DNA of 64,000 nucleotides. It comes from a virus. The position numbers and the translations under genes were made by a program. Positions within the stretch are counted from its first letter, which is position 1. Each line of letters opens with the position of its first letter. Under the pieces are notes generated by a model. The model did not search any database. It was not told where the DNA came from and was given only the letters and a program-made list of their open reading frames with translations. The stretch spans positions 1 through 64,000 of IMG/VR virus record IMGVR_UViG_3300026116_000003; one strand, given 5' to 3'. Below are positions 6,792 to 54,291 of this stretch, in pieces.

Positions 6792-6871
6792 TCAATCGTA
6801 TTATCTCAAAGCAAATGAAGAAAGCGTGCAGAGTATTGCACGCTTTCTTCCGAACTGGCGAGTCTTTACTT

Positions 6872-7525
6872 TTACTCTTTGGCCGCTTTGGCCAAGCGAT
6901 ACTCGTTCTTGCCATTCTCTTTGCGGACTTCCAGCAAACCGCTCTTGACCTGGTCGGCCAAGTTGCCGTTGATTTTGCCGGGAGGGACGCCAGACTCTTC
7001 TTCAATCTGAGCGATGGTTTTCCACGCTCGGGAAAAGGCCGTATTCGTCTGGGCGCGAATCGTCCCGAGCCGGCAGCCGTATTTGTCTTTCTCGACCGTC
7101 GACTTGCCGCCAGCTTTCTTTGCCTTGGCCGGCTTGCTCTTTTTGACTTTCCGCGCCGGAGTCTTCGCCAGAAGCTTCTTCAACTTCTCTTTGACGCTAG
7201 CAATGGAATCTTTCGCCCGAATCTTGATGTCCAGCTTGCGCTCTTCGATGAAAGCGCGAATAGCCGCCTTGTCCATCGAGTCGACATCAATCACTTCGTC
7301 AACTTCTTCCTCTTCGGCCGGAGCTTCGTCCGCCAGCTGGATATCGCCGTCGGCCGCAATCAACTCGTTCAACAGAGGAACGAATTGCGCTTTCACGTCG
7401 CTCTCGCTGACCTTCGTCGGCACCAGCTGGATTTTCTTGAGCAGCTTGGCGTCGTCCCAATCAGCGGCGCTCGGAAAGCCCAAATCGACCAACATAGCAA
7501 CCGCGTCATTTCTCTTGATTTTCAT
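6872..7525 (-). CDS. hypothetical DNA-binding protein (acidic linker, Lys-rich region, C-terminal winged-HTH-like)
   Basis: KTIAQIEEESGVPPGKINGNLADQVKSGLLEV...EYRL. Confidence 0.5.
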   Translation of the reverse strand: MKIKRNDAVAMLVDLGFPSAADWDDAKLLKKIQLVPTKVSESDVKAQFVPLLNELIAADGDIQLADEAPAEEEEVDEVIDVDSMDKAAIRAFIEERKLDIKIRAKDSIASVKEKLKKLLAKTPARKVKKSKPAKAKKAGGKSTVEKDKYGCRLGTIRAQTNTAFSRAWKTIAQIEEESGVPPGKINGNLADQVKSGLLEVRKENGKNEYRLAKAAKE

Positions 7526-7636
7526 ACTGTTTTCCTTCTTTTGTTTTGAAGCCGTTATGGCCTCGATTGTTTTTATTATCTCCTTAGAGCGGAAAGATTC
7601 CCCATTTATTTTTGGGAATCTTTTCCACTACCCCAT

Positions 7637-7663
7637 CTATCGACCGCTTGTGGAAATACTTTA
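7637..7663 (-). promoter_or_regulatory. sigma28-type promoter motif, outlying copy
   Basis: TAAAGTAT-TTCCACAAGCG-GTCGATAG. Confidence 0.6.
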
Positions 7664-7671
7664 GGGGAAAT

Positions 7672-9078
7672 TTACCACGTAGAAATCATTGCGGGGTTGA
7701 CGAGCGCCAGAGAGCCGGCGACAGTGACGCACTTCGTCTCGTAATAAACTCCTTCGCGAAGGAGAATCCAGTTCAAGCGAAATATCCCCAGCTGCTTTTC
7801 CTTCTCCGTTTGATTCAGCCCCACCATTCCAGTAACGTGAGAAAGCTTGCGCTTGTCTTCGCTGAAATTGCTCCGGCGCAAAAGGACGCCGTCGTATGAC
7901 GCCGCGTCCGATTGAGTAGCCGTCAGAACCAAGCAGTGGTAATCTTGCGACAAGCGACGCAAAGCTTTCCACGTCTCGTTCGTTTGGTGCCGGAAGTCTT
8001 GCCCCTTCAATCCAGCTTCCGGCGCTAGGATATCCGCGTAGTCAACCACCACGACGTCTGGATACCAACCCTCGTGGATTTTCGCATCCATACTGACGCG
8101 AATATCCGCGACGGTCGTGGTCGAATTCGAAGAGCACTCCAACTCCAGTAAAGAAGAAGTTGATGCAGTCAATTTCAGAATTGTCTCTTGAGCTAGACGA
8201 GCTTCGCTTTCTTTCAGTCGAGAATCGTAACTAGAAAACCGAAACTTCACTTTTGGTTTCCCATCAGGTCCGAGTTTGATTTTAACGGGGCGCGATACGT
8301 CGCCAGCTTCCAGCGGCCGGCGCGCAGCGCGAGCAATAAACCGCCGCATCATTTGGTTCTTGGACATATCCCCTACCGAAAAGAACATCGTCCGGCGCTT
8401 GGACTTCGCTGCGGCTCTCCACGCCACGTCAATCAACCAAAAAGATTTGCCGCGCTTCTCCGGCGCGAGGAAAGCGATAAACCCATCCCGGCAGAGATGC
8501 TGGCCGAAGAATTCCCCGATATCCCCAGGGTAAAGAACCAGAGACTGGTCTTCATTTATCACCAGCGCTTCTCTCCACGCTTCAAAGTCAGTAAAGACGG
8601 AAACTCCAGCGCGAGCGTCAAACGATACGGGGTTGAATTGCGCCATCTTCTCTTTGACCGTATCCAAATCTTTCCGCAACAAACTTTCCTCCAGAGAGTC
8701 TTTCAAGCGAGTATACCGAATCTCCGAGAAATAGCGGGACGCAGAATCAACTAAGTAATCCGCGTTGAGCTCCTTCGCCAAAGCTTTGTAATCGTCGCTC
8801 AGAGAGCCCAAATATTTTTCAATCAAATCCACTTCCGGAGAGTCTCCGTGCTTATCCGCAAAGCCGCTAAACAGAAGTCGGATATTTTCTCGGGGCGCTT
8901 TTCCATACTCGTTGTAGAAGTCCCGGCACCAAACGTAGATTTGATTGGACCACTTCGACCGAAACGGCTTGGCTTCCTGCTTGAGCCCAGAAACTACTTT
9001 GCCCAATACTCGGGAGTTGACGATTAGCGCAGTCAAGATGGACCGTTCTTCGTCGCTCTGGTATTTCTGGACTTTCAT
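7672..9078 (-). CDS. dnaB: DnaB-like replicative helicase
   Basis: APEKRGKS Walker A, VVVVDYADIL, LRRLSQ...TATQS, SEDKRK. Confidence 0.9.
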   Translation of the reverse strand: MKVQKYQSDEERSILTALIVNSRVLGKVVSGLKQEAKPFRSKWSNQIYVWCRDFYNEYGKAPRENIRLLFSGFADKHGDSPEVDLIEKYLGSLSDDYKALAKELNADYLVDSASRYFSEIRYTRLKDSLEESLLRKDLDTVKEKMAQFNPVSFDARAGVSVFTDFEAWREALVINEDQSLVLYPGDIGEFFGQHLCRDGFIAFLAPEKRGKSFWLIDVAWRAAAKSKRRTMFFSVGDMSKNQMMRRFIARAARRPLEAGDVSRPVKIKLGPDGKPKVKFRFSSYDSRLKESEARLAQETILKLTASTSSLLELECSSNSTTTVADIRVSMDAKIHEGWYPDVVVVDYADILAPEAGLKGQDFRHQTNETWKALRRLSQDYHCLVLTATQSDAASYDGVLLRRSNFSEDKRKLSHVTGMVGLNQTEKEKQLGIFRLNWILLREGVYYETKCVTVAGSLALVNPAMISTW

Positions 9079-11548: not shown

Positions 11549-11583
11549 ATTCTTATTATCTCGTTTAGGTTAAAGTTTTGCTC

Positions 11584-12209: not shown

Positions 12210-12791
12210 TTACTTAGCTGCCGGGATGCGGACGAATTGAGCCGGCGTGAACCGAACGGCTTGCGAGCGCAAAGAATCGTTGAAGATACCGAGCGCAAGT
12301 TCCATCTTCTCTTGATTCGCTAGGGCTCGATTGTAGGGCAAGCGAGTCCAGCCGACTGTCCCGCTCGCGGTATGCTTGACGAAATAGCGAGTTGTCCAGC
12401 CGACGTCTTTGAATTCGACCTCGATTGCATCGCCTACTTTCAAGTCAAACAGGCCGTTCTCGCTGGCGATATTCTGCCGCGCTTGCTTGCGGGCAAACTC
12501 GCTTGAGCGACGCTTTTCCTTCAAGTCCATTGCTTCGACTTGCGCCGCGTGGACCGTTGCGCTAGCGACGTTCCCCAGCACTGTCAACATGCGGAAAGGA
12601 ACGGTCCAGAGTCCCTTCGATTCCCCTTCTGGCATTACTTCAGCGACTTGATGCTGGATGGAGGGGAGCCCGAACTTGGCGAATTTGCGCCCGCGTTCAA
12701 TCGTCTTGAGCCGAACCACGACTCCAGTAACTTGACCGCGACGCCCGTTAAACCGCACTCTTGCACCGACTTTGATTTCGTTTTTTGTCAT
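12210..12791 (-). CDS. hypothetical protein (SH3/KOW-like repeats)
   Basis: IKVGARVRF and LKVGDAIEV; ATG directly after a promoter repeat. Confidence 0.6.
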   Translation of the reverse strand: MTKNEIKVGARVRFNGRRGQVTGVVVRLKTIERGRKFAKFGLPSIQHQVAEVMPEGESKGLWTVPFRMLTVLGNVASATVHAAQVEAMDLKEKRRSSEFARKQARQNIASENGLFDLKVGDAIEVEFKDVGWTTRYFVKHTASGTVGWTRLPYNRALANQEKMELALGIFNDSLRSQAVRFTPAQFVRIPAAK

Positions 12792-12821
12792 ACTAAGTTA
12801 TCGACGCCCTGTGGAAATACT

Positions 12822-13163
12822 TTAGCTCTTTGTTCCGATAAAAGTTACCGGAGTCGTAAAGTGCGCTAGGGAGAGCGGATAGCGCTCTTTTCCCAAGTGC
12901 AAAAGGACTTGCTTTGCGTGGTCGAGCGCATGGGCTTGAATCTTCGGCCAGTTGCGGTCGCTGACGAACCAGCGCTTGTTTTCTTTGTCAGCGAGCGCAA
13001 AGAAGTGGTCTGGAATCAAGTTGCGCCGCGCGTCGTCTTTGCTATAGTCGCTCAACTTAGCCGGAGTCCGTCCGCTAGCTAATATACATTCGCAGCCCTT
13101 GAGCCACGTATAAACCATCCACTCGCCCGCTTCCCGATTCAGTTGTCTTATTGTTCGTTTCAT
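12822..13163 (-). CDS. hypothetical protein
   Basis: Start MKRTIRQ after a promoter repeat; its stop is the TAA of the next repeat. Confidence 0.65.
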   Translation of the reverse strand: MKRTIRQLNREAGEWMVYTWLKGCECILASGRTPAKLSDYSKDDARRNLIPDHFFALADKENKRWFVSDRNWPKIQAHALDHAKQVLLHLGKERYPLSLAHFTTPVTFIGTKS

Positions 13164-13194
13164 ACCAGTATTATCGTCAGCCCTTAGGGATACT

Positions 13195-13377
13195 TTAGTC
13201 CAATTGAAACATATCTTTGATTGCCTCCAGGATATCGCAATCCCGTATCGGCGGCAGGTCGCCGGCGATGTAATGCTCGAAAGCGCCCTTGCGATACCAA
13301 TTGTCAAACTTCTGGCTTTTAAGCGTATCCAGTATCTTTTGAGCCACTTTGTCTTGATTCGATTTGTTTTTATTCAT
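13195..13377 (-). CDS. hypothetical protein
   Basis: MNKNKSNQDK..., bounded by promoter repeats. Confidence 0.6.
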   Translation of the reverse strand: MNKNKSNQDKVAQKILDTLKSQKFDNWYRKGAFEHYIAGDLPPIRDCDILEAIKDMFQLD

Positions 13378-13408
13378 ACCAGTATTATCGTCAGCCCTTA
13401 GGGATACT

Positions 13409-13801
13409 TTAGCTTTTCTTTTTGCACTCCGGCCCGATACCGGATTCGATTGATTCCGGAACCGTGAGCTTGCGACCGCAGCGGCAACATTTGCCGGCGT
13501 GCTGGATTTCAACTTTCCCGGCGAGCTCGTTCAAGTGAGACCAGATATACGCGAAGGCTACCGCGCTAGGAGCGCTTGGAGCAATCGAAGAGCGAAGTCC
13601 ATGGCGGTAATTCTCTCCGTTGAAAATCGTCCCGAGGAACGTATAGCTCGATTCGTTGTCGGGGCCCGTAAGGACTTTGACGAAGTGGGGCGACTCCGGC
13701 TTGGGCTGACGAATCTTGTAAGTAAAGCGAGTCCCGGTCTTGAGCGACGTAGCGGTAAACGTAGCGTTCCCCGCCAGCGCGAATTCTTTAATATTTATCA
13801 T
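13409..13801 (-). CDS. DUF6011-like zinc-finger protein
   Basis: AGNATFT.TS.KTGTRFTY; CCRCGRKLTVPESIESGIGPEC. Confidence 0.8.
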   Translation of the reverse strand: MINIKEFALAGNATFTATSLKTGTRFTYKIRQPKPESPHFVKVLTGPDNESSYTFLGTIFNGENYRHGLRSSIAPSAPSAVAFAYIWSHLNELAGKVEIQHAGKCCRCGRKLTVPESIESGIGPECKKKS

Positions 13802-13831
13802 ACAAGTATATCGTCAGCCCTTAGGGATACT

Positions 13832-14593
13832 TTAGCTGACTAACTTCATTTCAGAAGGCTTGGTCCCCGGTGCGAATCGGACTTCACTTGCGAAGCTGGC
13901 TTTTAGCGCTTTCATCGCTTCAGCTTGCTTGACGCGAAGAGCCACGATTTTCTCCCATTGCCCGACTGTGAACGTCTCGCCCTTGTAGGTGAGCTTGCCG
14001 TTCTCTTCGACGCGAAACCCCTCTGGCGTCGAGTATTCCGACAACCAGCTCTGCTGAGTAAGTTGCTTGACGAATTCCTTGCTAATAGGGGCGGCGATGA
14101 ACGTCCGATAGCGAGCTTCTGTTGCCGCTTTGATTTGCTCGACCGAGCGCTCGTGTTGAGCGACGCCGACGATTTCCCGAATCTTCTCTAGCGCTTTGGC
14201 TTTCTGCTTTGCGTCGAGCCCGAGCTCCCGGCCGTTGCCGATTTTCAGCCACTTAGTATCGCCGTAATCGCCGATAACGAGCTTCCAGCCAGTGCAATGC
14301 CCACTGGACCACTTGCTTGAGCCCGTATACATATTCTCAATTCGAACGCGAACACCGAGCGCCCTAGTCCCGTCCGTAGCCGGGTCGAGTTGCCGCAAGA
14401 CCGCGAGCTCGGCTACATTTTGCTCAATTTGCGCTTGAGCGCGGGAAGCCAGTTCTTGCTCGTGCTTTACGATACGCTCGGAGGGTTCGATACCGTTCAT
14501 CATTCCAGCTTCAATCGCGTCTTTGTTGATATCGTTGAATTCGGTACAGAACTGCGTGGACTTTTCGACTTTGATATTTTGATTCGTTGTCAT
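13832..14593 (-). CDS. hypothetical protein
   Basis: 253-aa ORF bounded by repeats. Confidence 0.65.
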   Translation of the reverse strand: MTTNQNIKVEKSTQFCTEFNDINKDAIEAGMMNGIEPSERIVKHEQELASRAQAQIEQNVAELAVLRQLDPATDGTRALGVRVRIENMYTGSSKWSSGHCTGWKLVIGDYGDTKWLKIGNGRELGLDAKQKAKALEKIREIVGVAQHERSVEQIKAATEARYRTFIAAPISKEFVKQLTQQSWLSEYSTPEGFRVEENGKLTYKGETFTVGQWEKIVALRVKQAEAMKALKASFASEVRFAPGTKPSEMKLVS

Positions 14594-14656
14594 ATTTTGA
14601 TTTTGTTTTTTTGCCCTTGTAAGAGAGTTATCGTCAGAGTAGGGAAATACTTTAGC

Positions 14657-14854
14657 TCAAACTTTAGAAACTCGAACGAACGCCAGCCCGTAAGAGCTAG
14701 AGTCTTGAGCGATATCGTTGTGCTTCGCCCAAGCTCTCAAAGCTTCCAGCGTGAATAATGAACCCGCGTATTGCTTCGACGTTGCTTCAACCGTTAGCTC
14801 AGTCGTCTCGTATCCGACCGCCGTTACCGTTACTTTGAATTTGTTCGTTTTCAT
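14657..14854 (-). CDS. hypothetical protein
   Basis: ATG immediately after the sigma54-like promoter. Confidence 0.6.
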   Translation of the reverse strand: MKTNKFKVTVTAVGYETTELTVEATSKQYAGSLFTLEALRAWAKHNDIAQDSSSYGLAFVRVSKV

Positions 14855-14981
14855 ACTCCCCTAATAGCAAGCTCGATACCACTACTGTATTATCTCTAAC
14901 ACGTTGAGTTTAAGCCAAACCTTAAATCGACTCTTTCCCTAGTGTCCCAAATCGAGATAGACACTGTCTCAAATTTGGACT
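14855..14981 (-). promoter_or_regulatory. sigma54-type promoter block, copy 1 (-24/-12, IHF-like site, tandem UAS-like sites)
   Basis: TGGTAT-CGAGC-TTGCT (14866-14881); ACTCAA-CGTG-TTA (14897-14909); TGTC-N9-GAYW at 14943 and 14965. Confidence 0.7.
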
Positions 14982-15016
14982 GGAGCTTCTTTCGCGTAGC
15001 GTCTCGCTTCGGAAAG

Positions 15017-15083
15017 ACGTCCTAATCCGTCAGGATTGCACGCCAGGACCGTTTGGATTTGCTTTTGAGTGTCAATATAGCGG
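15017..15083. repeat. dispersed structured repeat, copy 2
   Basis: gtcctaatccgtcaggattgcacgccaggacc...tttgagtgtcaatatagcgg. Confidence 0.75.
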
Positions 15084-15100
15084 CCTGCTAGGGTAACGTC

Positions 15101-15601
15101 CTATAACTTAAAGCTCAAAGCGTAGCGAGTCGCTACTTCGTTCGGCTCGTAGAAGTGGCCCTCGGCTGCGGCTTGAGATACGTCTTGCCAGAGGAAGTCC
15201 GGCGGCTTAGGGGCGAGCCATTCCATCCCGAGCGTCGAGACGAAAGCCGGGAACGTCCCGGTAGAGAAGTCTACTATCTCGTTCGTATCCGGCAACGCAA
15301 TCCAGACATGCATCTCGGGGATTCCTCCGGACGCCATAGCGAGTATTGAGTTGAAGTCCGTCGGGCTCCACTTGAAAGCGAAGTGCGTCCCGCGCACGCC
15401 GTCGTCGAGATGCTTGGGGACGATTTCCCATTGCATCGTCCCCGCTTGCAGGACGGGGCGATAGAAGCGCGGGTAACGGCTCAAGACTTCCATCCCAATC
15501 TTCGCTAAGTAAGCGCAAGCGCGGTGCGGTTCGATATCCGCGTGGCGCTCTTTGAAGAGCCGCTGGACCAGCTCAAAGATTCGTTGACGAGCTTCGTTCA
15601 T
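15101..15601 (-). CDS. hypothetical protein (possible Cys-His-Asp transglutaminase/papain-like fold)
   Basis: ACAY...EMHVWIAL....EIVDFST. Confidence 0.5.
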   Translation of the reverse strand: MNEARQRIFELVQRLFKERHADIEPHRACAYLAKIGMEVLSRYPRFYRPVLQAGTMQWEIVPKHLDDGVRGTHFAFKWSPTDFNSILAMASGGIPEMHVWIALPDTNEIVDFSTGTFPAFVSTLGMEWLAPKPPDFLWQDVSQAAAEGHFYEPNEVATRYALSFKL

Positions 15602-16065
15602 ATCCCTGCCTTTAGCTTGAGCTTTTCCAGCGCAGCTCTCGCTTTAACTTTGATTTGCCCTTCCCATTCGGTATCCTGCCGCCCGAGCGTCAGGCCGTGG
15701 TATGCGTCGAGCAAGTCCTTCAGCGCCTGCCAATCTTCGCTCGCTCGCTCGTCTCTCTTGCTTCGTCGCTTGTCGCAATCGCAAGCAACTACGTGCCCGT
15801 GTTTGTCGCACCAGTGCGTCGGTCGTTTGGGGTGGCAATCTAAACTTCCGTCAATCCGATAGTCTTGCGGCAAGTAATCTTCGGTCTCAATCCACTGGCG
15901 AATTGCTTTCGCTTCTTCCGCGCTAAAGTAAGCCTCTATCGGCCCGCGGCGAAAGAGCAGTGCGTCTCTTCGCTCTTTCGTAATCGTGTGCCCGTGGACT
16001 AGCAATCGCCCAGCTTCCGTTGCGTTGAGGTCTCGCACCAGTTTGTCTCTTGTATTGATACTCAT
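15598..16065 (-). CDS. hypothetical protein
   Basis: ATGA overlap with the downstream gene. Confidence 0.55.
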   Translation of the reverse strand: MSINTRDKLVRDLNATEAGRLLVHGHTITKERRDALLFRRGPIEAYFSAEEAKAIRQWIETEDYLPQDYRIDGSLDCHPKRPTHWCDKHGHVVACDCDKRRSKRDERASEDWQALKDLLDAYHGLTLGRQDTEWEGQIKVKARAALEKLKLKAGI

Positions 16066-16066
16066 A

Positions 16067-16375
16067 TCAGTAATCTCCAGTCGGTTCGTTGCGCCCCATG
16101 ACTTCGTTGTAATATCCCATCGGGTCGGCTTCTCGCGTGCAACTATCGCAGTGGTATCCGTGCGCTTTTTGATACGACGAGCGCAAGCGAGATTTGCACG
16201 TCGGGCACAATAGCGGATGATTTTCAGGAGGAAGTCCGTTCGTCTCTTTCTCTACTTTCGGGATTCCAGTGGCGCAAGCTTTGCACTTCCCGGCGTGCTC
16301 TCTAGCGTATTTCTTCGACGTAAGAGCACCGCACGAACACCGGACCGTAAACTGCTTGAATTGAAAGTTGCTCAT
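16067..16375 (-). CDS. Cys-rich zinc-finger protein
   Basis: CSC, CKAC, CPTC, CDSC. Confidence 0.6.
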   Translation of the reverse strand: MSNFQFKQFTVRCSCGALTSKKYAREHAGKCKACATGIPKVEKETNGLPPENHPLLCPTCKSRLRSSYQKAHGYHCDSCTREADPMGYYNEVMGRNEPTGDY

Positions 16376-17085
16376 ATTCCAATCCTCCCATTCGCTTTGC
16401 CGCTGCCGACTTGATTGAGGCGAATCTGCTGCCCCTTAGCTCGCCCGAAAGCGTAAGCCGAGTTGCTGACTTGTTGCGCCCGAGCTTTCGAGCGAATCAA
16501 TACGGGGAAGTCTTGCGCCACGCGCTTCGATATCAGAGCGTCTTTATTGACGACAATCAGCGCCCAGCAACTCGCTTCCTTCGGAGTCAGCTTCGCTTCT
16601 TCGCGCCGGTTCACTTCGATAATTCCGTCGCAGAGCCCGCGAAAGACTCCGTTCTTGTTTGCGGCGCAACTGACCATCCCGTTTTTCTCGGCGTGGTAAT
16701 ACGTCGAGGGAAAGACTTTCTCCAGATAGGGGAAGAGCTCCCGGCAGATGGCGACGTCCGTCGCTTCTCCGATAAAGATAGCCTTCGTGCCACTGATGAT
16801 AACTTGAACGCCGAAGCACTGGCGCAGCACGCGATAAATCCACGTATGGTAGGGCTTTTGAGCGCTCGTCTTTATCTGGATATCGGCGCGGTCGATTTCA
16901 ATCGACGAGCCAGCAGAACGACCGGCCGCCATATCAATCGACGCCAGTTCAATCCCGTGCTTCATGGCCAGCTCTTTCGCTTTGCCCATCGCCGCTTCCA
17001 TCTCGCCTTGCGAAGCGTTGCCGTGAGACAGCGCGAGGCACTTGCGAATCTTTTCAATCACCGCCGAGTTCATTTGATTTGTCAT
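16372..17085 (-). CDS. DUF2786 domain protein
   Basis: IEKIRKCLALS....GEMEAAM.KA.ELAMKHGI. Confidence 0.85.
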   Translation of the reverse strand: MTNQMNSAVIEKIRKCLALSHGNASQGEMEAAMGKAKELAMKHGIELASIDMAAGRSAGSSIEIDRADIQIKTSAQKPYHTWIYRVLRQCFGVQVIISGTKAIFIGEATDVAICRELFPYLEKVFPSTYYHAEKNGMVSCAANKNGVFRGLCDGIIEVNRREEAKLTPKEASCWALIVVNKDALISKRVAQDFPVLIRSKARAQQVSNSAYAFGRAKGQQIRLNQVGSGKANGRIGI

Positions 17086-17147
17086 AACTTGTTTTTTTTG
17101 TTTCGCCCTGTGGAAAGTATATCGTCAGCCCTTAGGGATACTTTAGC

Positions 17148-17444
17148 TCAAATCGAGAAATCAATTACGACGCTCGCAACTGTCGCAACCACAACCGTGA
17201 ACTTTACCCACCAGTGCGATTGATTCGCTACGCTCGCTCCGCCGCGGAACGCCGCGTAGTGCTCGCCCTCGTCGACTAACACTGCGCCGGGAACGGCCGC
17301 GATTACTTGAGCCGCGTAGCTTTCCGCGCTACCGCCGTGACGATAGTAGAACCCGTGGCGAGCAGTAAAGACGCCATTCCGCAAGCTTATTGAATCCGCC
17401 GATATTAGTTCCTCGATTTGCTTTATTGTCATTTTGTTTTTCAT
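17148..17444 (-). CDS. hypothetical protein
   Basis: ATG after the second sigma54-like promoter. Confidence 0.6.
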   Translation of the reverse strand: MKNKMTIKQIEELISADSISLRNGVFTARHGFYYRHGGSAESYAAQVIAAVPGAVLVDEGEHYAAFRGGASVANQSHWWVKFTVVVATVASVVIDFSI

Positions 17445-17571
17445 ACTCCCCTAATAGCAAGCTCGATACCACTACTGTATTATCTCTAAGTGCTTGAGTT
17501 TAAGCCAAACCCTAAATTGAAGATTCCCCTAGTGTCTCGCTCCTAGATAGACAGTGTCCCGTTTCGAGTCA
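17445..17571 (-). promoter_or_regulatory. sigma54-type promoter block, copy 2
   Basis: Same -24/-12 element (17456-17471), ACTCAA-GCAC-TTA, and TGTC sites at 17533 and 17555 with identical spacing. Confidence 0.7.
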
Positions 17572-17847
17572 AAACCCCCGAGTTTGCCCGAAAGTTCCCC
17601 ACTTGCTGATAAATTCCAGGTCCAGGAGGACTTGCTTCGTTATCGGGCTCACCGCAGGTTCTGCCGGAACGCTAGCCAGGGCGCGTGAACGCACGCTCGC
17701 TTGACGTTGCTCGACGAGCGCCGGGATTGACGCTAGGTTGGTCGAGACGTAGAGCAAACAAGCGAGAGCCAGCCAGAACGTCTTGAGACTCGCTACCGCT
17801 GGCGTCGGTCCAACCAGCACGTCGAATTCGAAAGCGTCATTGTTCAT
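17569..17847 (-). CDS. hypothetical membrane protein
   Basis: hydrophobic segment FWLALACLLYV. Confidence 0.45.
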   Translation of the reverse strand: MNNDAFEFDVLVGPTPAVASLKTFWLALACLLYVSTNLASIPALVEQRQASVRSRALASVPAEPAVSPITKQVLLDLEFISKWGTFGQTRGF

Positions 17848-17865
17848 ACTGGTAAAATCGCTAAA

Positions 17866-18057
17866 TCAATGAGCCGAAGCTACATACCACTTGTTATCTA
17901 CGCCGAGCACAATTTGAAACTTTCCCTTGTGAGAGACGAAAACAGCCGGCGGCATTCCGCAGGGGCGAGGACGAAGCTCTACAATCGCCGCCGTCAAAGG
18001 CACGCCATTTTCAATTTCGACTTGCACTAAATCACCGACTTTTAAGTTTTTCTTCAT
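17866..18057 (-). CDS. hypothetical protein (SH3-like)
   Basis: LKVGDLVQV; follows a promoter repeat. Confidence 0.6.
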   Translation of the reverse strand: MKKNLKVGDLVQVEIENGVPLTAAIVELRPRPCGMPPAVFVSHKGKFQIVLGVDNKWYVASAH

Positions 18058-18099
18058 ACTAGAGTTATCGTCAGCCCTTAGGGATACTTTAGCTTTATC

Positions 18100-18489
18100 T
18101 CAAAGCTTTGCAGCCGCAAGCACTTCAGCCCGGAGCTTAGCCGCGCAGGGAGCGCAGTAGCCGTGAGAGACGAAGCTCCCAAGCGCCTTGCTGCGCTCTT
18201 TGTTATCGCAAGCGCAACAGAGCCAGAGCATAATCTCTTTGCCACGACAAGCAGCTTCGCGGACGAGCGCCAGCGCCGTCAAGTCCGTAATCTTTACTAG
18301 CTCGCTCGTTGAGCACCGAGTCCAGTCTCCGCCGCTAACGGTAAATCCGGCCGGAGCGCCCGTATAGTGCAAGCGCGGGCGGATTTCAGTTTTCGTCCCG
18401 TCCAAGTCCCAAATATTGTAGCCGACGCCAGGAGCGGTCGATTCCAGAGACTTTACCGCCGCCGCAAGTTTGATTGTCATATTCTTCAT
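18100..18489 (-). CDS. hypothetical protein with C-terminal zinc motif
   Basis: CCAC...SHGYCAPC. Confidence 0.6.
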   Translation of the reverse strand: MKNMTIKLAAAVKSLESTAPGVGYNIWDLDGTKTEIRPRLHYTGAPAGFTVSGGDWTRCSTSELVKITDLTALALVREAACRGKEIMLWLCCACDNKERSKALGSFVSHGYCAPCAAKLRAEVLAAAKL

Positions 18490-18520
18490 ACCCTAGTTAT
18501 CGACGCCCTTAGAGAATACT

Positions 18521-18679
18521 TTAGGGGCGATTGATATATCCACTGGGGTTGCGCTTAGCGTCTTCCAGCAAGAGAGCCAGGAGGAACAAAGTATCAGTCT
18601 CGCTTTGCGCCATACCGAGCGACTCCGCGCGCTTCCGGTCAGCGATTAGCGAGTCAATTATTTCATCAAAAGTTTTCAT
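18521..18679 (-). CDS. hypothetical protein (52 aa)
   Basis: MKTFDEIIDSLIADRKRAE...; ATGA overlap upstream, stop lies in the repeat TAA. Confidence 0.5.
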   Translation of the reverse strand: MKTFDEIIDSLIADRKRAESLGMAQSETDTLFLLALLLEDAKRNPSGYINRP

Positions 18680-18858
18680 ATCATTCCGTTCGCGTCGAGC
18701 TCGTCATAGAGCGCTTTCGTCTTCGTTACCATATTATTGTCTCGCTTGAGCCGGCGGAGCTGAACCAAGACGTCGATTACTTCCTCGTCAGTTATCGGCT
18801 CGCCCAAATACTTTGCCATAATTTGCTTCGCCGTGAGTTTCTTTGTTTTGCTTTTCAT
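18676..18858 (-). CDS. hypothetical protein
   Basis: MKSKTKK start overlapping the upstream stop. Confidence 0.5.
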   Translation of the reverse strand: MKSKTKKLTAKQIMAKYLGEPITDEEVIDVLVQLRRLKRDNNMVTKTKALYDELDANGMI

Positions 18859-19100
18859 AAAATTGTAACGCACGGAGCGAAGTGAAAATCCCGCATTGCT
18901 TGTTCGATAGTCATCCCTTCAGCTTCGCCCGTAACAAAGTCTCCATACATCAATTCGGCTGCGTCTGCCCGAGTCTCGAAGTCTCCAGTATATTGCTCTT
19001 CGTGCTTTAGTTTTTTGCAGTCCTTGCAATCAGCAGCGTGGACAATAAAGACGCCTTTGGATTGGTCCCGCAAATTAGGTCCGAAAATTGTCAGTTTCAT
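18855..19100 (-). CDS. hypothetical protein
   Basis: VHAADCKDC...FAPC. Confidence 0.6.
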   Translation of the reverse strand: MKLTIFGPNLRDQSKGVFIVHAADCKDCKKLKHEEQYTGDFETRADAAELMYGDFVTGEAEGMTIEQAMRDFHFAPCVTIL

Positions 19101-19393
19101 AAATCTTGCAAGTAGGGGTTGGGTTTGTAGGTCGGTTCGGGCTTGACGTTGAGCTTTTTGGGCATCATGGCGAGCGCTCGTTCCATCGGAGTTTGCTTTA
19201 CGTCGAAGTGAATCAAGACCGGTTGGTAAACGAAGACTCCACGACGACCGGCGTAAGCGCGCACGTCTTCGATACTTTCGAAGCGAGTTGCCTTTTCGTG
19301 ATTGCGTATCGACTTGAATCCAGTCGGCGGGACGTCTACTAAATACACGTTTTTCTTCTCAAACCAAATTACCCATTTGCTATCAATTTTCAT
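19097..19393 (-). CDS. hypothetical protein
   Basis: follows a promoter repeat. Confidence 0.6.
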   Translation of the reverse strand: MKIDSKWVIWFEKKNVYLVDVPPTGFKSIRNHEKATRFESIEDVRAYAGRRGVFVYQPVLIHFDVKQTPMERALAMMPKKLNVKPEPTYKPNPYLQDL

Positions 19394-19428
19394 ACTGGTA
19401 TATCGACGCCCTGTGGAAATACTTTAGC

Positions 19429-19710
19429 TCAAGCTTTGAAATACTTTGCGATATCGGGAAAGTCTCGCTTGAGCGACGCTACAGCGAGCCGAGCGATTTC
19501 ATTATCAACTTTGCGAATCTCCGCGTTGACTTGCTTGCAAGTTGCGTCAGCCATAAGCTTTATCGCTATGGGCGTGCAACCGTCGTATTTCCCGAAAGAT
19601 GCTTGCTTGCTCAAAGCGTCTCGGATTTGGACAGTATTCCAGCCGGCGTTTAGAAGCTCGCCGATTGCTTTTTGCAGTCTCGCTACCACCGTTTCGTTTA
19701 TCTCGTTCAT
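19429..19710 (-). CDS. hypothetical protein
   Basis: bounded by repeats. Confidence 0.6.
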   Translation of the reverse strand: MNEINETVVARLQKAIGELLNAGWNTVQIRDALSKQASFGKYDGCTPIAIKLMADATCKQVNAEIRKVDNEIARLAVASLKRDFPDIAKYFKA

Positions 19711-19741
19711 ACTAGAGTTCAGCCCTTAGGGATACTTTAGC

Positions 19742-19924
19742 TCAATCTTGAAGAGCGATTGCAGCCGCGCGGGCAAGCTCGACGCCCTTGCTAATCCGGT
19801 CCCGTTCGATTAAGAGCAACGGCTTGAGCATCGTCGATACTCGCGGCGACTTGATTAAGCGGTCGAGACGGTCCCAATCGGCTCGGATAGAGCGAAACTC
19901 TGCATGGGCTTGTAAATAAGTCAT
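19742..19924 (-). CDS. hypothetical protein
   Basis: short ORF in the cassette array. Confidence 0.5.
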   Translation of the reverse strand: MTYLQAHAEFRSIRADWDRLDRLIKSPRVSTMLKPLLLIERDRISKGVELARAAAIALQD

Positions 19925-19930
19925 AAAAGC

Positions 19931-20113
19931 TTAGTTTTCAAAACATTGGACCCACTTAACGACTTGAGACGTAGAGCTACGGATTGTGCTCAAGACGCGC
20001 CTGGCGCGGCTCGGCTCGATATCCATCGGGAGCAATCCTTCAAGCCGCTCGATTGCTTGTTTCATTTGCGTCAGCTCTTCCTGGATTCTATCGTATTCGA
20101 TTGATTTATTCAT
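19931..20113 (-). CDS. hypothetical protein
   Basis: MNKSIEY after a promoter repeat. Confidence 0.55.
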   Translation of the reverse strand: MNKSIEYDRIQEELTQMKQAIERLEGLLPMDIEPSRARRVLSTIRSSTSQVVKWVQCFEN

Positions 20114-20144
20114 ACTCAAGTTATCGACGCCCTTAGGGAATACT

Positions 20145-20387
20145 TTAGCTCAAAGTTGCAAAGACTTCAGAGATAACATAAGCCCAGCCCCGTCGATTGA
20201 ACTGCTGACGAATCCCGTTCCCTACCATTACATTATACGGTTCGAGATTTGCGCCGGCATCTTTGACAAGCTTTAAGATAATCCAGCGTCCGTTGTCGCT
20301 CGATATTCGATAGAATTGGCATTCCACGATTCTGTGGTCGATTTTGAATTGCCCGACTTGCGATTGACTTGTTGCTATATATTTCAT
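20145..20387 (-). CDS. hypothetical protein
   Basis: bounded by repeats. Confidence 0.55.
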   Translation of the reverse strand: MKYIATSQSQVGQFKIDHRIVECQFYRISSDNGRWIILKLVKDAGANLEPYNVMVGNGIRQQFNRRGWAYVISEVFATLS

Positions 20388-20429
20388 ACTAGAGTTATCG
20401 ACGCCCTTAGGGAATACTTTAGCCCTTAT

Positions 20430-23040: not shown

Positions 23041-23610
23041 TTAATGAGCCCACACTTCCCAAAACCGCAATTCAATCTCTCGTTGCGCTCGCTCGATGCG
23101 TCGCTTGTCCAGGCCTTTGCTCTGGAGATATTCTTTGACTCTCGCCAGCAGTTGCTTCGGCGTCATCTTGCTCCCCAAGTCCAGACTTTCTCCGCGACGC
23201 GGGCCAGCAGCAATCCGCCCCACTTCCAGAATCTCCGCCGGGGTCTCCAGCAGGAGACTGATTATCTCTTGAGCGTCTTCCGACAAGCCACCAATCATAT
23301 CCATAATCTCGCTACGTTGCTCCGGCGCGAATCCAGTCAACTCGTCGTTCATCTCCGTGCAGATTAGCGGGTCTCTCGTCCGCTTCGTTATCCAGCTGCG
23401 CAAGCTCGTCCAGACCTTAAAGTAGCACCAGGAAGAGAACTTAGAACCGCGGCGGCTATCGTAAGTTTGACAAGCGAGCATGAAGGCCAGATAAGCCTCG
23501 CTCCGCGACTCTTCGAAAGTTACTGGACAAGCTTGCGCGACTTTCCACGCCAGACTGCAGAGCATTTTTTCCACTTTGGGAAATTCAATTTGCGGGTCGA
23601 TTTTTGTCAT
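23041..23610 (-). CDS. phage sigma70-family sigma factor
   Basis: Region 2-like ESRSEAYLAFMLACQTYDSRRGSKFSSWCYFKVWTSLRSW; region 4-like LSEDAQEIISLL. Confidence 0.72.
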   Translation of the reverse strand: MTKIDPQIEFPKVEKMLCSLAWKVAQACPVTFEESRSEAYLAFMLACQTYDSRRGSKFSSWCYFKVWTSLRSWITKRTRDPLICTEMNDELTGFAPEQRSEIMDMIGGLSEDAQEIISLLLETPAEILEVGRIAAGPRRGESLDLGSKMTPKQLLARVKEYLQSKGLDKRRIERAQREIELRFWEVWAH

Positions 23611-23677
23611 TTGTCGTTGGTTAGAAAGTATACCTTTCTAACCCGGTGTCAACTCTCAAAAGATAATAAGACGTTAG

Positions 23678-23838
23678 GTTTATATTTACGTATTAAAAGA
23701 CCCAAGAACTTTAGAGATTCGTTATGTAGGAGCCCACCGGAACTTAAAATGCAATTCAAGTCGGCTTGCGCTCGTGATAGAGAAACGATGCAAGAAGCAA
23801 TCGTAAGGATGATGCAAGAATTTTCAGACGAGAGATAA
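23678..23838 (+). pseudogene. decayed GIY-YIG endonuclease N-terminus joined out of frame to an RHH-like domain
   Basis: VYIYVLKDPRTLEIRYVG (23678-23731) with no start codon; in another frame PELKMQFKSACARDRETMQEAIVRMMQEF. Confidence 0.5.
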
Positions 23839-23846
23839 TAAGCAAC

Positions 23847-24905: not shown

Positions 24906-25842
24906 GCCTTATCCGATAGCCCTAGCCGTTGCCGACTTGCATCTCTCTTTGCTCCAGCCGGCTTGCCGAGCCGATAAGAGCTGGACGGACGTGCAAGCGG
25001 GATACCTCGAGCAACTAAAAGAGATTGCTGAAATTCGAATGACAGACGGTTCGCTTAGAACTTTGCCTATCCTCTGCGCGGGAGATATTTTTGATAGATG
25101 GAACGCCAGCCCCGAGTTGATTAACTTTGCATTGCACTGGTTACCCGATGGTATGCTGTGCGTCCCTGGCCAGCACGACTTGCCGCTCCACCGGAGCGAC
25201 TTGATGCACCGCTCCGGATACGGAGTATTGAAAAAAGTAGGGAAGATTAGAGACTTGTCTGAAGATGTGGTAACGATAGCAGCGGAGAGATTGATGGTGC
25301 ATGGATACGGATGGGAGCAAGAAATTGAACCGCTGGAAAGTAAATCCCGAGACCGCTTTCTCTACGTCGCCCTCATTCACCGCTACGTATGGACAGTCGA
25401 AGCTGGCTATCCGGGAGCGCCACAGTCTTCCCACTTGAGCTCGCTAATGAAAAGCTTGAAGGGTTACGACGTGGCAATCATCGGGGACAACCACAAGCCC
25501 TTTTTGAAAGAGCTAAAGAACGGCTGCACGGCTTACGGGTGCGGAACTTTTATCCGCCGCAAGACGGACGAGATTGACTACGCTCCTAGCGTGGGAATTA
25601 TTTACTCTGATGGAAAGGTAAAGCGCAAGCTGCTCGACATCTCTGGAGACCGCTTCCACGAAAGCGCTAAAGACCGTCCAGAGACAGCTTTTAATATGAA
25701 AGAGTTTATCGAAGGGCTGGAAGAGCTCGGCGAGCACGGGCTGGACTTTAAGGCAGCCGTTGAGAATCACCTCAAGAATGAGGACGTTCATCCGCAAGTA
25801 AAGGAAATTATCTTGGCCGCGTTAGATAATACGAGAGTATGA
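24895..25842 (+). CDS. sbcD: Mre11/SbcD-like metallophosphoesterase nuclease
   Basis: ADLH, AGDIFD, PGQHD, GDNH. Confidence 0.85.
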   Translation: MKDKPYPIALAVADLHLSLLQPACRADKSWTDVQAGYLEQLKEIAEIRMTDGSLRTLPILCAGDIFDRWNASPELINFALHWLPDGMLCVPGQHDLPLHRSDLMHRSGYGVLKKVGKIRDLSEDVVTIAAERLMVHGYGWEQEIEPLESKSRDRFLYVALIHRYVWTVEAGYPGAPQSSHLSSLMKSLKGYDVAIIGDNHKPFLKELKNGCTAYGCGTFIRRKTDEIDYAPSVGIIYSDGKVKRKLLDISGDRFHESAKDRPETAFNMKEFIEGLEELGEHGLDFKAAVENHLKNEDVHPQVKEIILAALDNTRV

Positions 25843-49005: not shown

Positions 49006-50061
49006 TTACGGAGCCACGCTGTGGATGATACCCGAGTTGCCGTTGTAGTCAGAGCGCAGTTGCGGAACCATGATGCACATGACTTTGAAGTTGAGCCTCA
49101 TCCCGCCGAGAGTCTCCCATTGCACCGTTGTGATATCCATGCCGATAACCAAACGGATAACGTCGCTGGTCATTTGCACGAGCACCGCCTGCGTTCCGGT
49201 AAGGTAATCCGCCGTACGGATATCTGTGATGCCGTTAATCTGCATGAGGCGTTGCCGCACGCTGTTGTCTCCCTTGAGCGGGCTATAATCGTTGTCGAGG
49301 AACAAGTCCCACGCGGGCGATACGTAGAGCACCCACGGACCGTGATGGAAGTTGTCCACCGAGTCCTGCCGGAGCGCCAGGATTTCTCCGAGCAATACTG
49401 CTGGAGTCCAGCCGCTTGCAGTCGGAGCTGTCAGCACTCGCGTTACCCGTCCGGGAAAGTTAGTCATCCCGTAAACTGTCCCGCCGCCGTAAGTAAACGT
49501 CGGCGCGATTCCGAGCACCAGCTTCTCGGCTTCCTCTGCCACCCGACGGGCAGCAAGCTGCGCCGTTGCAGTATCAATCGAAGAGCCGAGATTGCGCGAC
49601 ACAGCGATTTGACGAGCCGAGAAAAAGAAGTCCTTGTGAATTACCGGCAAGGGCAAGTTCACGAGGTCGAATTCCGGCCGGTCTGACTCGCTCTGGCGAA
49701 TCGGGTCCATACTGATGGTTGCCGGCGTGATATCGCCCATCGTCTCGCTTTCCAGTACTGTCCGGCTCATACCGTTCGGGATATTGAGGACGAGCCCGGC
49801 GGAGCGCAAGTCGGCGACTACCCGAAGGCGCTCTTTCGCCGCCACAGAAATCGAGTCGTCAATCAGCTTCCACTCTTCCCGGCGGAGCGAAGCCGTGTTG
49901 TTGGTCGGAACCGCCACCATCTTGCCGTCGCCTTGATTGCGAGCGATGTAAGACCGCCCATCCTTACCTTGCCAGGGGCGCAAAGCAGCAACGTCAAACC
50001 CGCTATGCAGTAATTGGGTGGCTACGTTACCGTTCGCCTGCCCGTTTAGAATAAAGTCCAT
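49006..50061 (-). CDS. major capsid protein (HK97 fold, encapsulin/linocin-like)
   Basis: LRREEWKLID, PLPVIHKDF....RQI, AARRVAE; position after the decoration gene. Confidence 0.85.
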   Translation of the reverse strand: MDFILNGQANGNVATQLLHSGFDVAALRPWQGKDGRSYIARNQGDGKMVAVPTNNTASLRREEWKLIDDSISVAAKERLRVVADLRSAGLVLNIPNGMSRTVLESETMGDITPATISMDPIRQSESDRPEFDLVNLPLPVIHKDFFFSARQIAVSRNLGSSIDTATAQLAARRVAEEAEKLVLGIAPTFTYGGGTVYGMTNFPGRVTRVLTAPTASGWTPAVLLGEILALRQDSVDNFHHGPWVLYVSPAWDLFLDNDYSPLKGDNSVRQRLMQINGITDIRTADYLTGTQAVLVQMTSDVIRLVIGMDITTVQWETLGGMRLNFKVMCIMVPQLRSDYNGNSGIIHSVAP

Positions 50062-52163: not shown

Positions 52164-52391
52164 CTATTCCATTTTCCTCATCTTTTTGATGGCACTACGC
52201 GGAATGGTGAGCTGGTCCATATAGCGCCGGCGCTGGCTAACGCTAGTGGAAATAGTTACCGAATGTTTGCCTTCGTAGACGAGCAATCCCACAGAGAGGA
52301 TATAGTGACGGCCGTCTCGTTGCGGGCTATCCCAGCCAGGGCTGGTAAACGAGTCCTCCCACTTAATCTGAACTACTTTAAGCTTTTTCAC
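52164..52391 (-). CDS. hypothetical phage protein
   Basis: VQIKWEDS...SVG.L....IPRSAI. Confidence 0.6.
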   Translation of the reverse strand: MKKLKVVQIKWEDSFTSPGWDSPQRDGRHYILSVGLLVYEGKHSVTISTSVSQRRRYMDQLTIPRSAIKKMRKME

Positions 52392-53193
52392 GCTTCTGTA
52401 TGTAGTCGAGCAATACTCGACGGTTCGCGTCCATGTGCGTGCGGTAAGCGTTAGCGACGGAACGAGCGTGCCAGCGGTGCAGCAAGCAGAGCCACCTGTT
52501 GCGCTGAAATAATTCCCAAGCTTTGACTCGGCTAATCTCGTCCCGGCAGCGCCACGTCACGTTCGTAATATCCAACCGGCCGGATAGCGGACAAGCTCCA
52601 CGCTGATAGCGCTCCAGCATATAGATTTGCTGGTAGTCTTCCCAGCCGTAGCCGGCAAAGCGTTCATCACACCCGCCCAAGTCCAGATACTCCTGGCGCC
52701 GGCAGATAAAGTTAGTCCCGGCCGGGCGCAAGTAGGAGTTGGCCGAGTAAAAGCCGGGGTTCTCCATAATCTCCGTATAGTTGCGCTCGGTAAGGTCTTT
52801 TGTATCCAGCAGAGCAGAAGCTTTGCGGTTCAAGTAAAGCATTCCGCCATTGAACCACTCCCGCGGAGCCGCCCAAACGAGAATCGGCAAGAGCTCTTTG
52901 AAGTAACGGGGATTGGGAAGCGTGTCTATATCGAGCTTCATTATCCACTCCGACGTGGTCATCTTCGCTCCTTCGTTGTGGTAATAGCCGATGGAACGTC
53001 CCTCTTTGAAATGGATTCCGATAACGTCAACAGTCCACAAATCCGTAAAGTCTAGCTCTTTGCGCGGAGCTACTTCACCAATAAAGAAAATGAGGTGGTT
53101 TACTTCGGGGTGAGCGGCAGCCCGGATAGCTTTGAGCCATACTTTCAGCGCGTCCGGCCGGTTCCAGACGGGAGTAATAGTTGTGAGGGTCAC
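52378..53193 (-). CDS. glycosyltransferase (GT2 with GT7-C-like motif)
   Basis: ITPVWNR, LDID, LGGCDERFAGYGWED, LHRWH. Confidence 0.85.
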   Translation of the reverse strand: MTLTTITPVWNRPDALKVWLKAIRAAAHPEVNHLIFFIGEVAPRKELDFTDLWTVDVIGIHFKEGRSIGYYHNEGAKMTTSEWIMKLDIDTLPNPRYFKELLPILVWAAPREWFNGGMLYLNRKASALLDTKDLTERNYTEIMENPGFYSANSYLRPAGTNFICRRQEYLDLGGCDERFAGYGWEDYQQIYMLERYQRGACPLSGRLDITNVTWRCRDEISRVKAWELFQRNRWLCLLHRWHARSVANAYRTHMDANRRVLLDYIQKREKA

Positions 53194-53834
53194 GCCCGGT
53201 GGTGGTGCTTGGAATCGGGCCGTTTCATACGAGAAGGAGACTCCGCTACTTTTTGAATCTCTAGCTTGTGCTTAAGGCAATCGGGGCAATCTACTTCGTC
53301 CCAATACGCTGACCACAAGTGGCCAGACGGCCAGACTTTTGGAACGCCTTGGATTCCGCAAGGAGCTCGTCCGGCTCGCAAGTAATGAACGACAAGAACA
53401 GGGTTCCTAGCGTGCGCGGGTTGCGTTGCGTCTACTCTTGCCGCGTCCCACTCTGTTTCTTTTACTAAAGCACCAACGTCAGCCAGTGCTTTGTCAGCCC
53501 GCTCCGCTGCCTTCTTGTCGGAGTATTTCAAATCGTTGTAGCGTTTGGTGAGCTTGAGGATGTTAGCGTCCAGCGTCTCTTGCCGCGAGATATCCATCGC
53601 TTGCCGGAGCCCTTCCATATAGAATTCCAAATCGCCGAGCTCTTCGATAACGTTAGCGCGGTCGAGCGGCTTGCGGTAGATAACCGGGCGCTTAATCGCG
53701 TCGAACAGTTCTCCGGCTTCGCTGCAAATACAAGACGACATGTGCCAAACATTGCAGTCCCAAGCGGTCAGCTCGTTCAAGATATCTTCTCCAGGCTTGG
53801 TCAGCTTCGCTACTAATTCGGGGTGAGTAATCAT
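53190..53834 (-). CDS. mazG: MazG-like nucleotide pyrophosphohydrolase with C-terminal zinc motif
   Basis: SEAGELFDAIK...EELGDLEFY...NILKL.KRY. Confidence 0.85.
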   Translation of the reverse strand: MITHPELVAKLTKPGEDILNELTAWDCNVWHMSSCICSEAGELFDAIKRPVIYRKPLDRANVIEELGDLEFYMEGLRQAMDISRQETLDANILKLTKRYNDLKYSDKKAAERADKALADVGALVKETEWDAARVDATQPAHARNPVLVVHYLRAGRAPCGIQGVPKVWPSGHLWSAYWDEVDCPDCLKHKLEIQKVAESPSRMKRPDSKHHHRA

Positions 53835-54088: not shown

Positions 54089-54291
54089 AGTTCAGCTTCG
54101 CGCAGCGCCGCGAGCAGCGCGGTTGATTTTGCCGCTCCTTCTCCTTGCGGAAGAGACTTGACATAATCGAACCACCGGACTGACACCAGCCGCGGCCGGA
54201 ACTGCAAAATAAATTCGTTCAATACGAAGCCGTCCTTCTCTGGGTCTATCCGGTGAGCCACTGGAATCTTAATCATCTGCCCCTCGGTCAT
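54085..54291 (-). CDS. hypothetical protein
   Basis: ATGA overlaps on both sides. Confidence 0.5.
   Translation of the reverse strand: MTEGQMIKIPVAHRIDPEKDGFVLNEFILQFRPRLVSVRWFDYVKSLPQGEGAAKSTALLAALREAEL

Follow-up and report, generated by a model that had tools for sequence, protein, structure and literature searches.

The window analysed here (the whole stretch of 64,000 nucleotides) covers the first 64 kb of an IMG/VR virus record of 74,135 bp, IMGVR_UViG_3300026116_000003, which carries 90-bp terminal repeats and which we call phage G000. It is a tailed phage encoding a tape-measure protein, with a siphovirus-like 74-kb genome of 52% GC, and on its minus strand the genes follow one another in the order sigma factor, SNF2 helicase, primase, an array of 22 small genes, and finally the genes for replication. 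The array encodes proteins that are either ORFans or made of domains of unknown function. This paper concerns the short repeat which punctuates the array: two fixed boxes held apart by an 11-bp spacer, TAAAGTAT-N11-GNCGATA, with the sequence and the geometry of a promoter of the sigma-28 class.

The repeat and its copies

The earlier note on this DNA, made from the letters alone, had counted 12 copies of the repeat in the array plus one near 7637, and had proposed a search for the motif over the whole genome. This search returns 12 exact matches to the pattern, every one on the coding strand of the region, the minus strand, and none further: there is no copy on the plus strand or in the remaining 10 kb of the 74,135-bp genome, and dinucleotide-preserving shuffles contain no exact match. 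When up to three mismatches are allowed, just five extra weak matches appear, about 3 being expected. Eleven intact copies lie within 12,799-20,421 and one is an outlier at 7,638-7,663; the remaining copy counted in the array is degenerate, in that it retains TAAAGTAT at 19732-19739, the spacer and the usual ATG context, its CGATA being gone. The orthologue of this degenerate copy in phage G001, a close relative of G000, is intact. The copies and the features around them are the following (lengths of genes in amino acids, aa).

23041..23610, minus strand: sigma-70-family gene, 189 aa, head of the sigma-SNF2-primase operon running into the array; candidate reader of the repeat
12210..20387, minus strand: hyperplastic array of 22 small genes, 13 common to G001 and 9 not
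20396..20421, minus strand: repeat copy 1, right after the primase gene; ATG at 20387, opening an 80-aa gene exclusive to G000
20122..20147, minus strand: repeat copy 2, whose TAA ends the 80-aa gene; ATG at 20113
19719..19739, minus strand: degenerate copy, -35 box and spacer kept, CGATA lost, intact in G001; ATG at 19710
19401..19426, minus strand: repeat copy adjoined by the TGA of the upstream gene; ATG at 19393
18498..18523, minus strand: repeat copy, TAA is the upstream stop; ATG at 18489; heads a 129-aa gene
18066..18091, minus strand: repeat copy; ATG at 18057, opening a 63-aa gene exclusive to G000
17120..17145, minus strand: repeat copy followed by an A-rich leader of about 35 nt, then a 237-aa DUF2786 gene
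14629..14654, minus strand: repeat copy followed by an A-rich leader, then a 253-aa gene
13809..13834, minus strand: repeat copy, TAA is the upstream stop; ATG at 13801, opening a DUF6011 gene
13386..13411, minus strand: repeat copy, TAA is the upstream stop; ATG at 13377
13172..13197, minus strand: repeat copy, TAA is the upstream stop; heads a 113-aa cassette (12822-13163) which is missing in G001 exactly between two repeats
12799..12824, minus strand: last repeat copy of the array, TAA is the upstream stop; ATG at 12791
7638..7663, minus strand: outlying repeat copy, after the DnaB-like helicase gene, with a structured RNA leader in place of an ATG

In nine of the intact copies an ATG which opens an open reading frame (ORF) stands 6-7 nt past the 8-nt -10 box, and longer leaders precede the start in the three others (7663, 14654, 17145). 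At the other edge of the repeat, the TAA of the -35 box itself terminates the preceding ORF at 12822, 13195, 13409, 13832, 18521 and 20145, and a TGA adjoins the box (TGAGC-TAAAG) at 14654, 17145, 19426 and 19739. Since this 5' edge, TGAGC-TAA, closes two reading frames, the unit reads stop, promoter, start. These distances, the six TAA positions and the number of adjoining TGA codons are those which the earlier note had given, and its statement that the spacer is usually palindromic holds for the 8 of 13 copies in which we found CCCTAAGGG; the short palindrome is missing in the other five, where the spacers differ and the boxes remain invariant. The A-rich leader which follows the copy at 17120..17145 contains spacer words of another variant of the repeat.

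We aligned 35 copies from G000, G001 and a third phage, G006. The information content is 1.7-2.0 bits per position in the -35 words C-TAAAGT-a-T, in the -10 core CGATA and at the G two positions upstream of this core, and 0.4-1.5 bits in the 11-bp spacer. Invariant boxes around a variable spacer are the signature of a two-box promoter for a factor of the sigma-70 family, and not of a contiguous promoter for a single-subunit polymerase. No RNA or DNA structure was found in the repeat: three copies fold no better than their shuffles (z from +0.7 to +0.8), and on this ground we rejected a terminator, an attC-like site or a structured RNA as its identity. Matches to intrinsic terminators are not enriched in the array region.

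The outlying copy is followed by an RNA of another kind. At 7526-7632 of the window (minus strand) the sequence folds into a 17-bp stem-loop and a second hairpin (-30 kcal/mol, z = -5.65), which precede a AGATAATA box, a second promoter-like word described below, and a 217-aa gene. This RNA may act as a small RNA or as a leader with a regulatory role.

Gain and loss of cassettes between close relatives

The record of G001 is 75,073 bp long, and its terminal repeats are organised as in G000. The regions flanking the array are 95-97% identical in the two phages and the array itself is mosaic: it holds 22 genes in G000 and 26 in G001, of which 13 are common, 9 private to G000 and 13 private to G001. 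Along the colinear chain of the two genomes we counted 11 differences in the array. Three are clean insertions or deletions of a single cassette flanked by neighbouring copies of the repeat, namely 12825-13171 of the window, missing in G001, and two additional cassettes in G001; in four others an end falls inside a repeat or beside one. In all, 7 of the 22 block ends fall inside the repeat, whose share of the array is 8% (binomial P of about 0.001). Promoters are swapped as well as genes, as can be seen from one 65-aa gene which stands behind a second repeated element in G000 and behind the sigma-28-like repeat in G001.

Material from metagenomes adds a little to this comparison. A joint which runs from repeat to repeat, from 12816 to 13190, is present in contigs of one rhizosphere run; as it resembles the arrangement of G001, it is not an independent event. 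A scan of metagenomes with a pattern that was over-strict returned two loci only, one identical to G001 and the other lacking 169 bp internally, a deletion not connected with the repeat. The latter, a variant of G001 on contig Ga0207712_10008920 (positions 2640-2752 of our locus L149, reverse strand), has lost the start codon and the first third of a cassette gene, directly after the promoter repeat.

The earlier note had viewed the genes as cassettes exchangeable by recombination between the repeats, and had suggested that relatives be compared for gain or loss with breakpoints in the repeat. Gene content does vary, and cassettes were gained or lost with breakpoints in the repeat, both against G001 and in the rhizosphere contigs. 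This view stands only in part, however, as clean exchanges account for just 3 of the 11 differences and another 4 of the 11 lie at plain gene borders or inside genes, where the repeat is not involved. Recombination at the repeat is not the sole route of turnover.

Promoter repeats which act as recombination points are already known from the PeSL (promoter-early stem-loop) cassettes of T4-type phages (PMC2839356, PMC4122927). G000 resembles them: in both, a hyperplastic region of small ORFan genes is interspersed with repeated strong promoters, the insertions, deletions and replacements between near-identical phages end in repeats, and T4-like recombination genes are encoded in G000 as well. 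The two systems differ in their elements, since a PeSL combines a sigma-70-like early promoter with a terminator stem-loop, whereas the repeat of G000 has no stem-loop, its words are sigma-28-like (its -35 window has just 2 of the 6 positions of TTGACA) and the promoter adjoins the ATG. They differ also in their carriers, as PeSLs occur in T4-type phages and G000 has a 74-kb siphovirus-like genome. The array of G000 takes promoter-mediated modular shuffling beyond T4-type phages.

Sigma factors which could read the repeat

The published consensus of sigma-28 promoters is TAAAGTTT-n11-GCCGATAA (PMC2859248), and in the open complex of sigma-28 on the fliC promoter of P. aeruginosa, GCCGATAA occupies -15 to -8 and TCTAAAG occupies -36 to -30 (PMC12784957). 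When the repeat is laid against these class 3 flagellar promoters, which are served by FliA, SigD or WhiG, 7 of the 8 positions agree in the -35 octamer and 7 of the 8 in the -10 octamer, and the spacer, variable in sequence, is exactly 11 bp long in all 12 copies. TAAAGTAT is invariant in these copies, and the C which precedes it agrees with the CTAAAG of P. aeruginosa fliC; the -10 box reads G-(A/T)-CGATA-(A/T), with an invariant CGATA core and an invariant G at -15, so that its sole departure from GCCGATAA is at -14. The register is shared too: the -10 box of the repeat ends at -8 or -7, with +1 at the ATG start, and the sigma-28 register laid on the repeat puts the A of the ATG at +1 or one base off. 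Transcripts headed by the repeat should hence begin on this A. The identification of the geometry with the FliA/sigma-28 consensus, already made in the earlier note, is borne out by the published sequences. What is different in G000 is that these predicted promoters sit in a phage, in 12 copies, fused to start codons (a leaderless layout), and that they carry the stop codon of the upstream gene.

The same type of promoter occurs in other phages, and the layout is not unique to G000, since at least three further phage lineages carry it. G006, a 31-kb fragment with 59% GC, has nine copies with the canonical CCGATA (GCCGATA), all of them 7-9 nt before an ATG. It has a few mosaic genes in common with G000; one of its copies is identical at 25 of 26 nt to a copy of G000, despite the difference in composition (GC 59% against 52%), and a copy heads a 49% identical homologue of the 129-aa array gene of G000 (18100-18489). 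G008 (IMGVR_UViG_3300014913_000007, 153 kb, GC 34%) holds 27-28 copies of TAAAGTTT-N11-G(C/A/T)CGATA on both strands of its first 53 kb (our loci L204-L206), among them GACGATA and GTCGATA variants, with an ATG at the same offset in nine. G009 (44 kb, GC 58%) has 7-10 copies, four of them in a leaderless layout. At E <=1e-5 G000 has no protein in common with G008 or G009 except for two weak matches each, for example the DNA polymerase, whose identity is 25-29%. The single matches which the motif gave in 117 IMG/VR stretches are for the most part due to chance, and they show no enrichment of an ATG at the expected offset. The sigma factor of G008 is a divergent protein of 365 aa, unrelated to that of G000 beyond a generic region 2; no sigma region 2 was detected in G006, in G009 or in G010 (a 40-kb terminal-repeat genome), two of these three being fragments in which a divergent sigma could be missed.

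These observations lead us to the following reading. Each repeat would be a complete promoter of sigma-28 geometry fused to a start codon, made of TAAAGTAT, the variable 11-bp spacer and G(A/T)CGATA(A/T), and would be read by the host core polymerase carrying the host's sigma-28-class factor. With the ATG 6-7 nt past the -10 box, the polymerase would start on the A of the ATG and produce a leaderless mRNA. The phage's own sigma of 189 aa would read separate boxes, AGATAATA, in front of the replication and recombination genes. Finally, the 45-65 bp of near-identical sequence at each cassette border would offer homology patches to the RecA/UvsX-like, UvsY-like and SbcCD-like proteins, by which whole cassettes of promoter plus gene could be gained, lost or given a new head. 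The part of this reading which names the host factor is one that we hold with only middling confidence, but we favour it over the phage sigma because one consensus in phages of 34-59% GC fits a conserved cellular factor, the convergence of several unrelated phage sigmas being a poor explanation. In Bdellovibrio, where 92 of the 140 attack-phase promoters carry TTAAG-N16-CCGATA (PMC3627812), a FliA-type sigma is able to serve a large set of non-flagellar genes; its regulon is cellular, however, and nothing ties G000 to Bdellovibrio as a host.

The phage sigma, which the earlier note had set beside host FliA without choosing between them, is the other candidate, and by its position the obvious one. 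We found no second sigma paralogue in G000. In the structural model, region 2 of this protein is a domain predicted with confidence, and a disordered linker joins it to a helical C-terminal domain of atypical form. Its best NCBIfam matches are the generic ECF and sigma-70 models, at E of about 0.003, with FliA/WhiG at 0.07; a profile of 12 homologues run against PDB gave matches confined to region 2 of group-1 sigmas, and Foldseek returned sigma factors of all groups with weak scores. It is a divergent protein of the sigma-70 family, with no specific likeness to FliA. In about a dozen viral contigs whose sigmas are 32-55% identical to it the repeat was not found, and AGATAAT is enriched there on the coding strand. 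Across the phages compared, repeat and sigma gene do not go together, since relatives of the sigma lack the repeat and phages with the repeat have another sigma or one that was not detected.

The word which does travel with this family of sigmas is AGATAATA. The minus strand of G000 holds 13 copies of this 8-bp box and the plus strand 3, 0.4 being expected; the box is often found 6-9 nt ahead of the start codons of replication and recombination genes (examples are at 1654-1661, 6799-6806, 11554-11561 and, on the plus strand, 23833-23840 and 25824-25831), and it is enriched in all the relatives which carry the same sigma family. By analogy with the sigma of phiEco32, gp36, which reads a single 9-bp box, TAATGTATA (PMC4331800), AGATAATA is likely the promoter of the phage sigma. 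G000 resembles phiEco32 in encoding a divergent sigma and in having highly conserved promoter words throughout the phage; it differs in that the repeat is a host alternative-sigma consensus and not a word private to the phage.

Three other elements were noticed around the sigma and its box. Upstream of the sigma gene (23615-23665, minus strand) lies a sigma-70-like promoter (TTGACA and TACTTT, 16 nt apart). A perfect palindrome, each arm 10 bp long, overlaps it and is probably an operator. A second repeated module, at 14855-14900 and 17445-17490 of the window (minus strand), consists of a AGATAATA box followed by TGGTAT-N5-TTGCT and ends 12 nt before an ATG; its spacing is sigma-54-like (-24/-12), it heads two genes in G000 and three in G001, and TGG-N8-TTGCW occurs 7 times, about 3 being expected, on both strands. 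In L144, a distant relative which carries the sigma and lacks the repeat, six small cassette genes (6984-8345) stand behind a GG-N10-GC word of a geometry like that of the second module; this repeated word, which is not the sigma-28-like repeat, ends 5-6 nt before each ATG.

Several points weigh against the host factor as the reader. The host may have no fliA gene; a host which does without Shine-Dalgarno pairing could belong to a non-flagellated lineage. Position -14 of the repeat is A or T where the consensus has C, and promoter activity and start site are predictions from geometry. G008 too encodes its own sigma, and G006 and G009 are fragments in which one could have been overlooked. The sigma of G000 has two domains and is encoded just upstream of the array, in the same orientation, an arrangement classical for phage sigma cascades. 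Moreover, the sigmas of G000 and G001 carry a 16-residue insertion in the C-terminal domain, missing in the relatives without the repeat, and this insertion could mark a changed -35 specificity.

These last points belong to the strongest rival, according to which the phage sigma (23041-23610) has the repeat as its cognate middle promoter: host sigma-70 would transcribe the sigma-SNF2-primase operon, the new sigma would redirect the core polymerase to the 12 repeats, and the likeness to sigma-28 would be due to descent or to convergence. The operon headed by the sigma gene runs into the array and begins at a sigma-70-like promoter with an operator-like palindrome, a protein of two domains on a disordered linker is what one expects of the reader of a bipartite promoter, the insertion is exclusive to phages bearing the repeat, boxes as invariant as these are typical of phage-specific promoters, and G008 combines the same promoter type with a sigma. 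Nevertheless we consider this rival rather unlikely. The protein has no specific FliA likeness, its homologues in about a dozen relatives go without the repeat, and the same promoter occurs in phages with almost no proteins in common with G000, whose sigma is unrelated or was not detected; it is unlikely that two unrelated sigmas should have converged, with identical spacing, on 7 of 8 positions in both octamers. Besides, the motif which travels with the sigma family is AGATAATA, and phage sigmas which read a single box are known, as in phiEco32.

The host's housekeeping sigma could instead read the GATAA(T) core of the -10 box, the repeat being essentially a leaderless promoter with a -10 box only and its TAAAGTAT box a site for an activator or a repressor. 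GATAAT, in the commonest variant, agrees with TATAAT at 5 of 6 positions and is separated from the ATG by 6 nt, a GATAA core at an equal distance from the ATG is also present in the AGATAATA boxes, and the spacer often holds a short palindrome. Yet the final positions of this would-be hexamer vary (A or T, then T, C or A), the C at -13 and the G at -15 are fixed, the -35 window keeps the poor agreement with TTGACA mentioned above, sigma-70-type promoter matches are no more frequent in the region than in shuffles (11 against 10.9), and the palindrome is absent from 5 of the 13 copies, all of which makes this explanation improbable. Improbable as well is that the repeat should be mainly a recombination or boundary element, or a punctuation bound by a protein, its promoter likeness having no role in transcription: the block boundaries between close relatives are indeed enriched in the repeat, and a near-identical copy sits in G006, an otherwise just distantly related phage, but such an element would account neither for the strict coding-strand bias and the fixed 6-7 nt to the start codons nor for two invariant boxes with a free spacer whose agreement with a known class of promoters extends to the register of the start site, the motif folds into no structure of its own as RNA or DNA (z above 0), and no site-specific recombinase was noticed among the proteins scanned.

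Leaderless expression, host and biological meaning

No Shine-Dalgarno-like core was found upstream of the genes headed by the repeat, which agrees with the earlier note, and such cores precede 10 of the 96 other genes, the background being 11.5%. As these cores are at background throughout the genome, G000, and presumably its host too, does not rely on Shine-Dalgarno pairing. Messengers driven by the repeat should, from the position of the boxes, be leaderless, and the frequent location of AGATAATA 6-9 nt before start codons makes transcript starts close to the start codon look like a general habit of G000. Genes internal to operons are often preceded by A-rich and CA-rich leaders. Long leaders of this A-rich or CA-rich kind were also seen before highly expressed genes, such as the capsid gene at 49006-50061.

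The rest of the genome gives the setting for these promoters. The replication module comprises a split family-A DNA polymerase, a UDG-exonuclease, a clamp with its clamp loader, a DnaB-like helicase, the primase and the SNF2 helicase; proteins of recombination type are RecA/UvsX-like, UvsY-like, SbcCD-like and PDDEXK. The large ORFs encode the tape measure, MuF, tail and protease proteins. No phage RNA polymerase was found in the genome of G000. An N4-like or T7-like nature of the phage was discarded, there being neither a giant virion polymerase nor a single-subunit polymerase gene; an archaeal TATA box was likewise rejected as a reading of the repeat, the replication genes and the sigma being of bacterial type. 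Two adjacent genes for TET-associated glycosyltransferases (Pfam TAGT, E of about 1e-49) lie outside the window, at 67433-69650 of the genome (3934-6151 of our locus L147), and this pair suggests that the DNA of G000 contains hypermodified, glycosylated cytosines. Between the head-morphogenesis and protease genes, 52378-59456 of the window holds genes of the GT2, GT11, GT25, FkbM and Methyltransf_24 types together with MazG.

As to the host, G000 DNA is present in rhizosphere and soil metagenomes, 11 listed runs containing at least half of the sampled words; none of the public runs listed is an RNA run containing it. A DNA search returned no cultured relatives, and the DNA polymerase is less than 30% identical to those of cultured phages. 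G000 contains no tRNA genes and no Rfam matches, a profile search of genome contigs with the sigma alignment, aimed at the host, gave no match, an Atlas search with the portal protein returned viral clusters only, and the Bacteroidota -7 motif TAnnTTTG shows no enrichment on the coding strand.

The unit described here is a compact natural design, in which about 45 bp hold a stop codon, a promoter and a start codon with no ribosome-binding site, and it is a useful model for leaderless expression. Its reader would decide the place of the array in the infection: if the host factor reads the repeats, expression of the array could begin as soon as the phage DNA is injected, and if the phage sigma reads them, the array would form a middle class. 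Phages are known to use the host sigma-70, sigma factors of their own, such as T4 gp55 and SPO1 gp28, or their own polymerases. Our search of the literature found no report of phage gene arrays or programmes run from sigma-28-type promoters; sigma-28 promoters, promoter-mediated shuffling (as in PeSL) and phage-encoded sigmas are each known singly.

The interest of the finding lies mainly in its recurrence across phages which share almost no proteins. Being found in phages of 34-59% GC, this promoter class is a searchable mark for annotating the early or accessory regions of metagenomic phage genomes. If a host sigma-28-class factor does read the repeats, the expression of accessory genes would depend on a motile or differentiating state of the host, and the anti-sigma FlgM, a checkpoint in flagellar regulation, would become a switch relevant to the phage. 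It is conceivable, although we put this forward tentatively, that we see here a widespread phage strategy, in which arrays of accessory genes are wired to the flagellar or developmental sigma-28 of the host by promoters fused to start codons, the motility or differentiation of the host gates their expression, and the 45-bp unit doubles as a portable recombination module within and between lineages.

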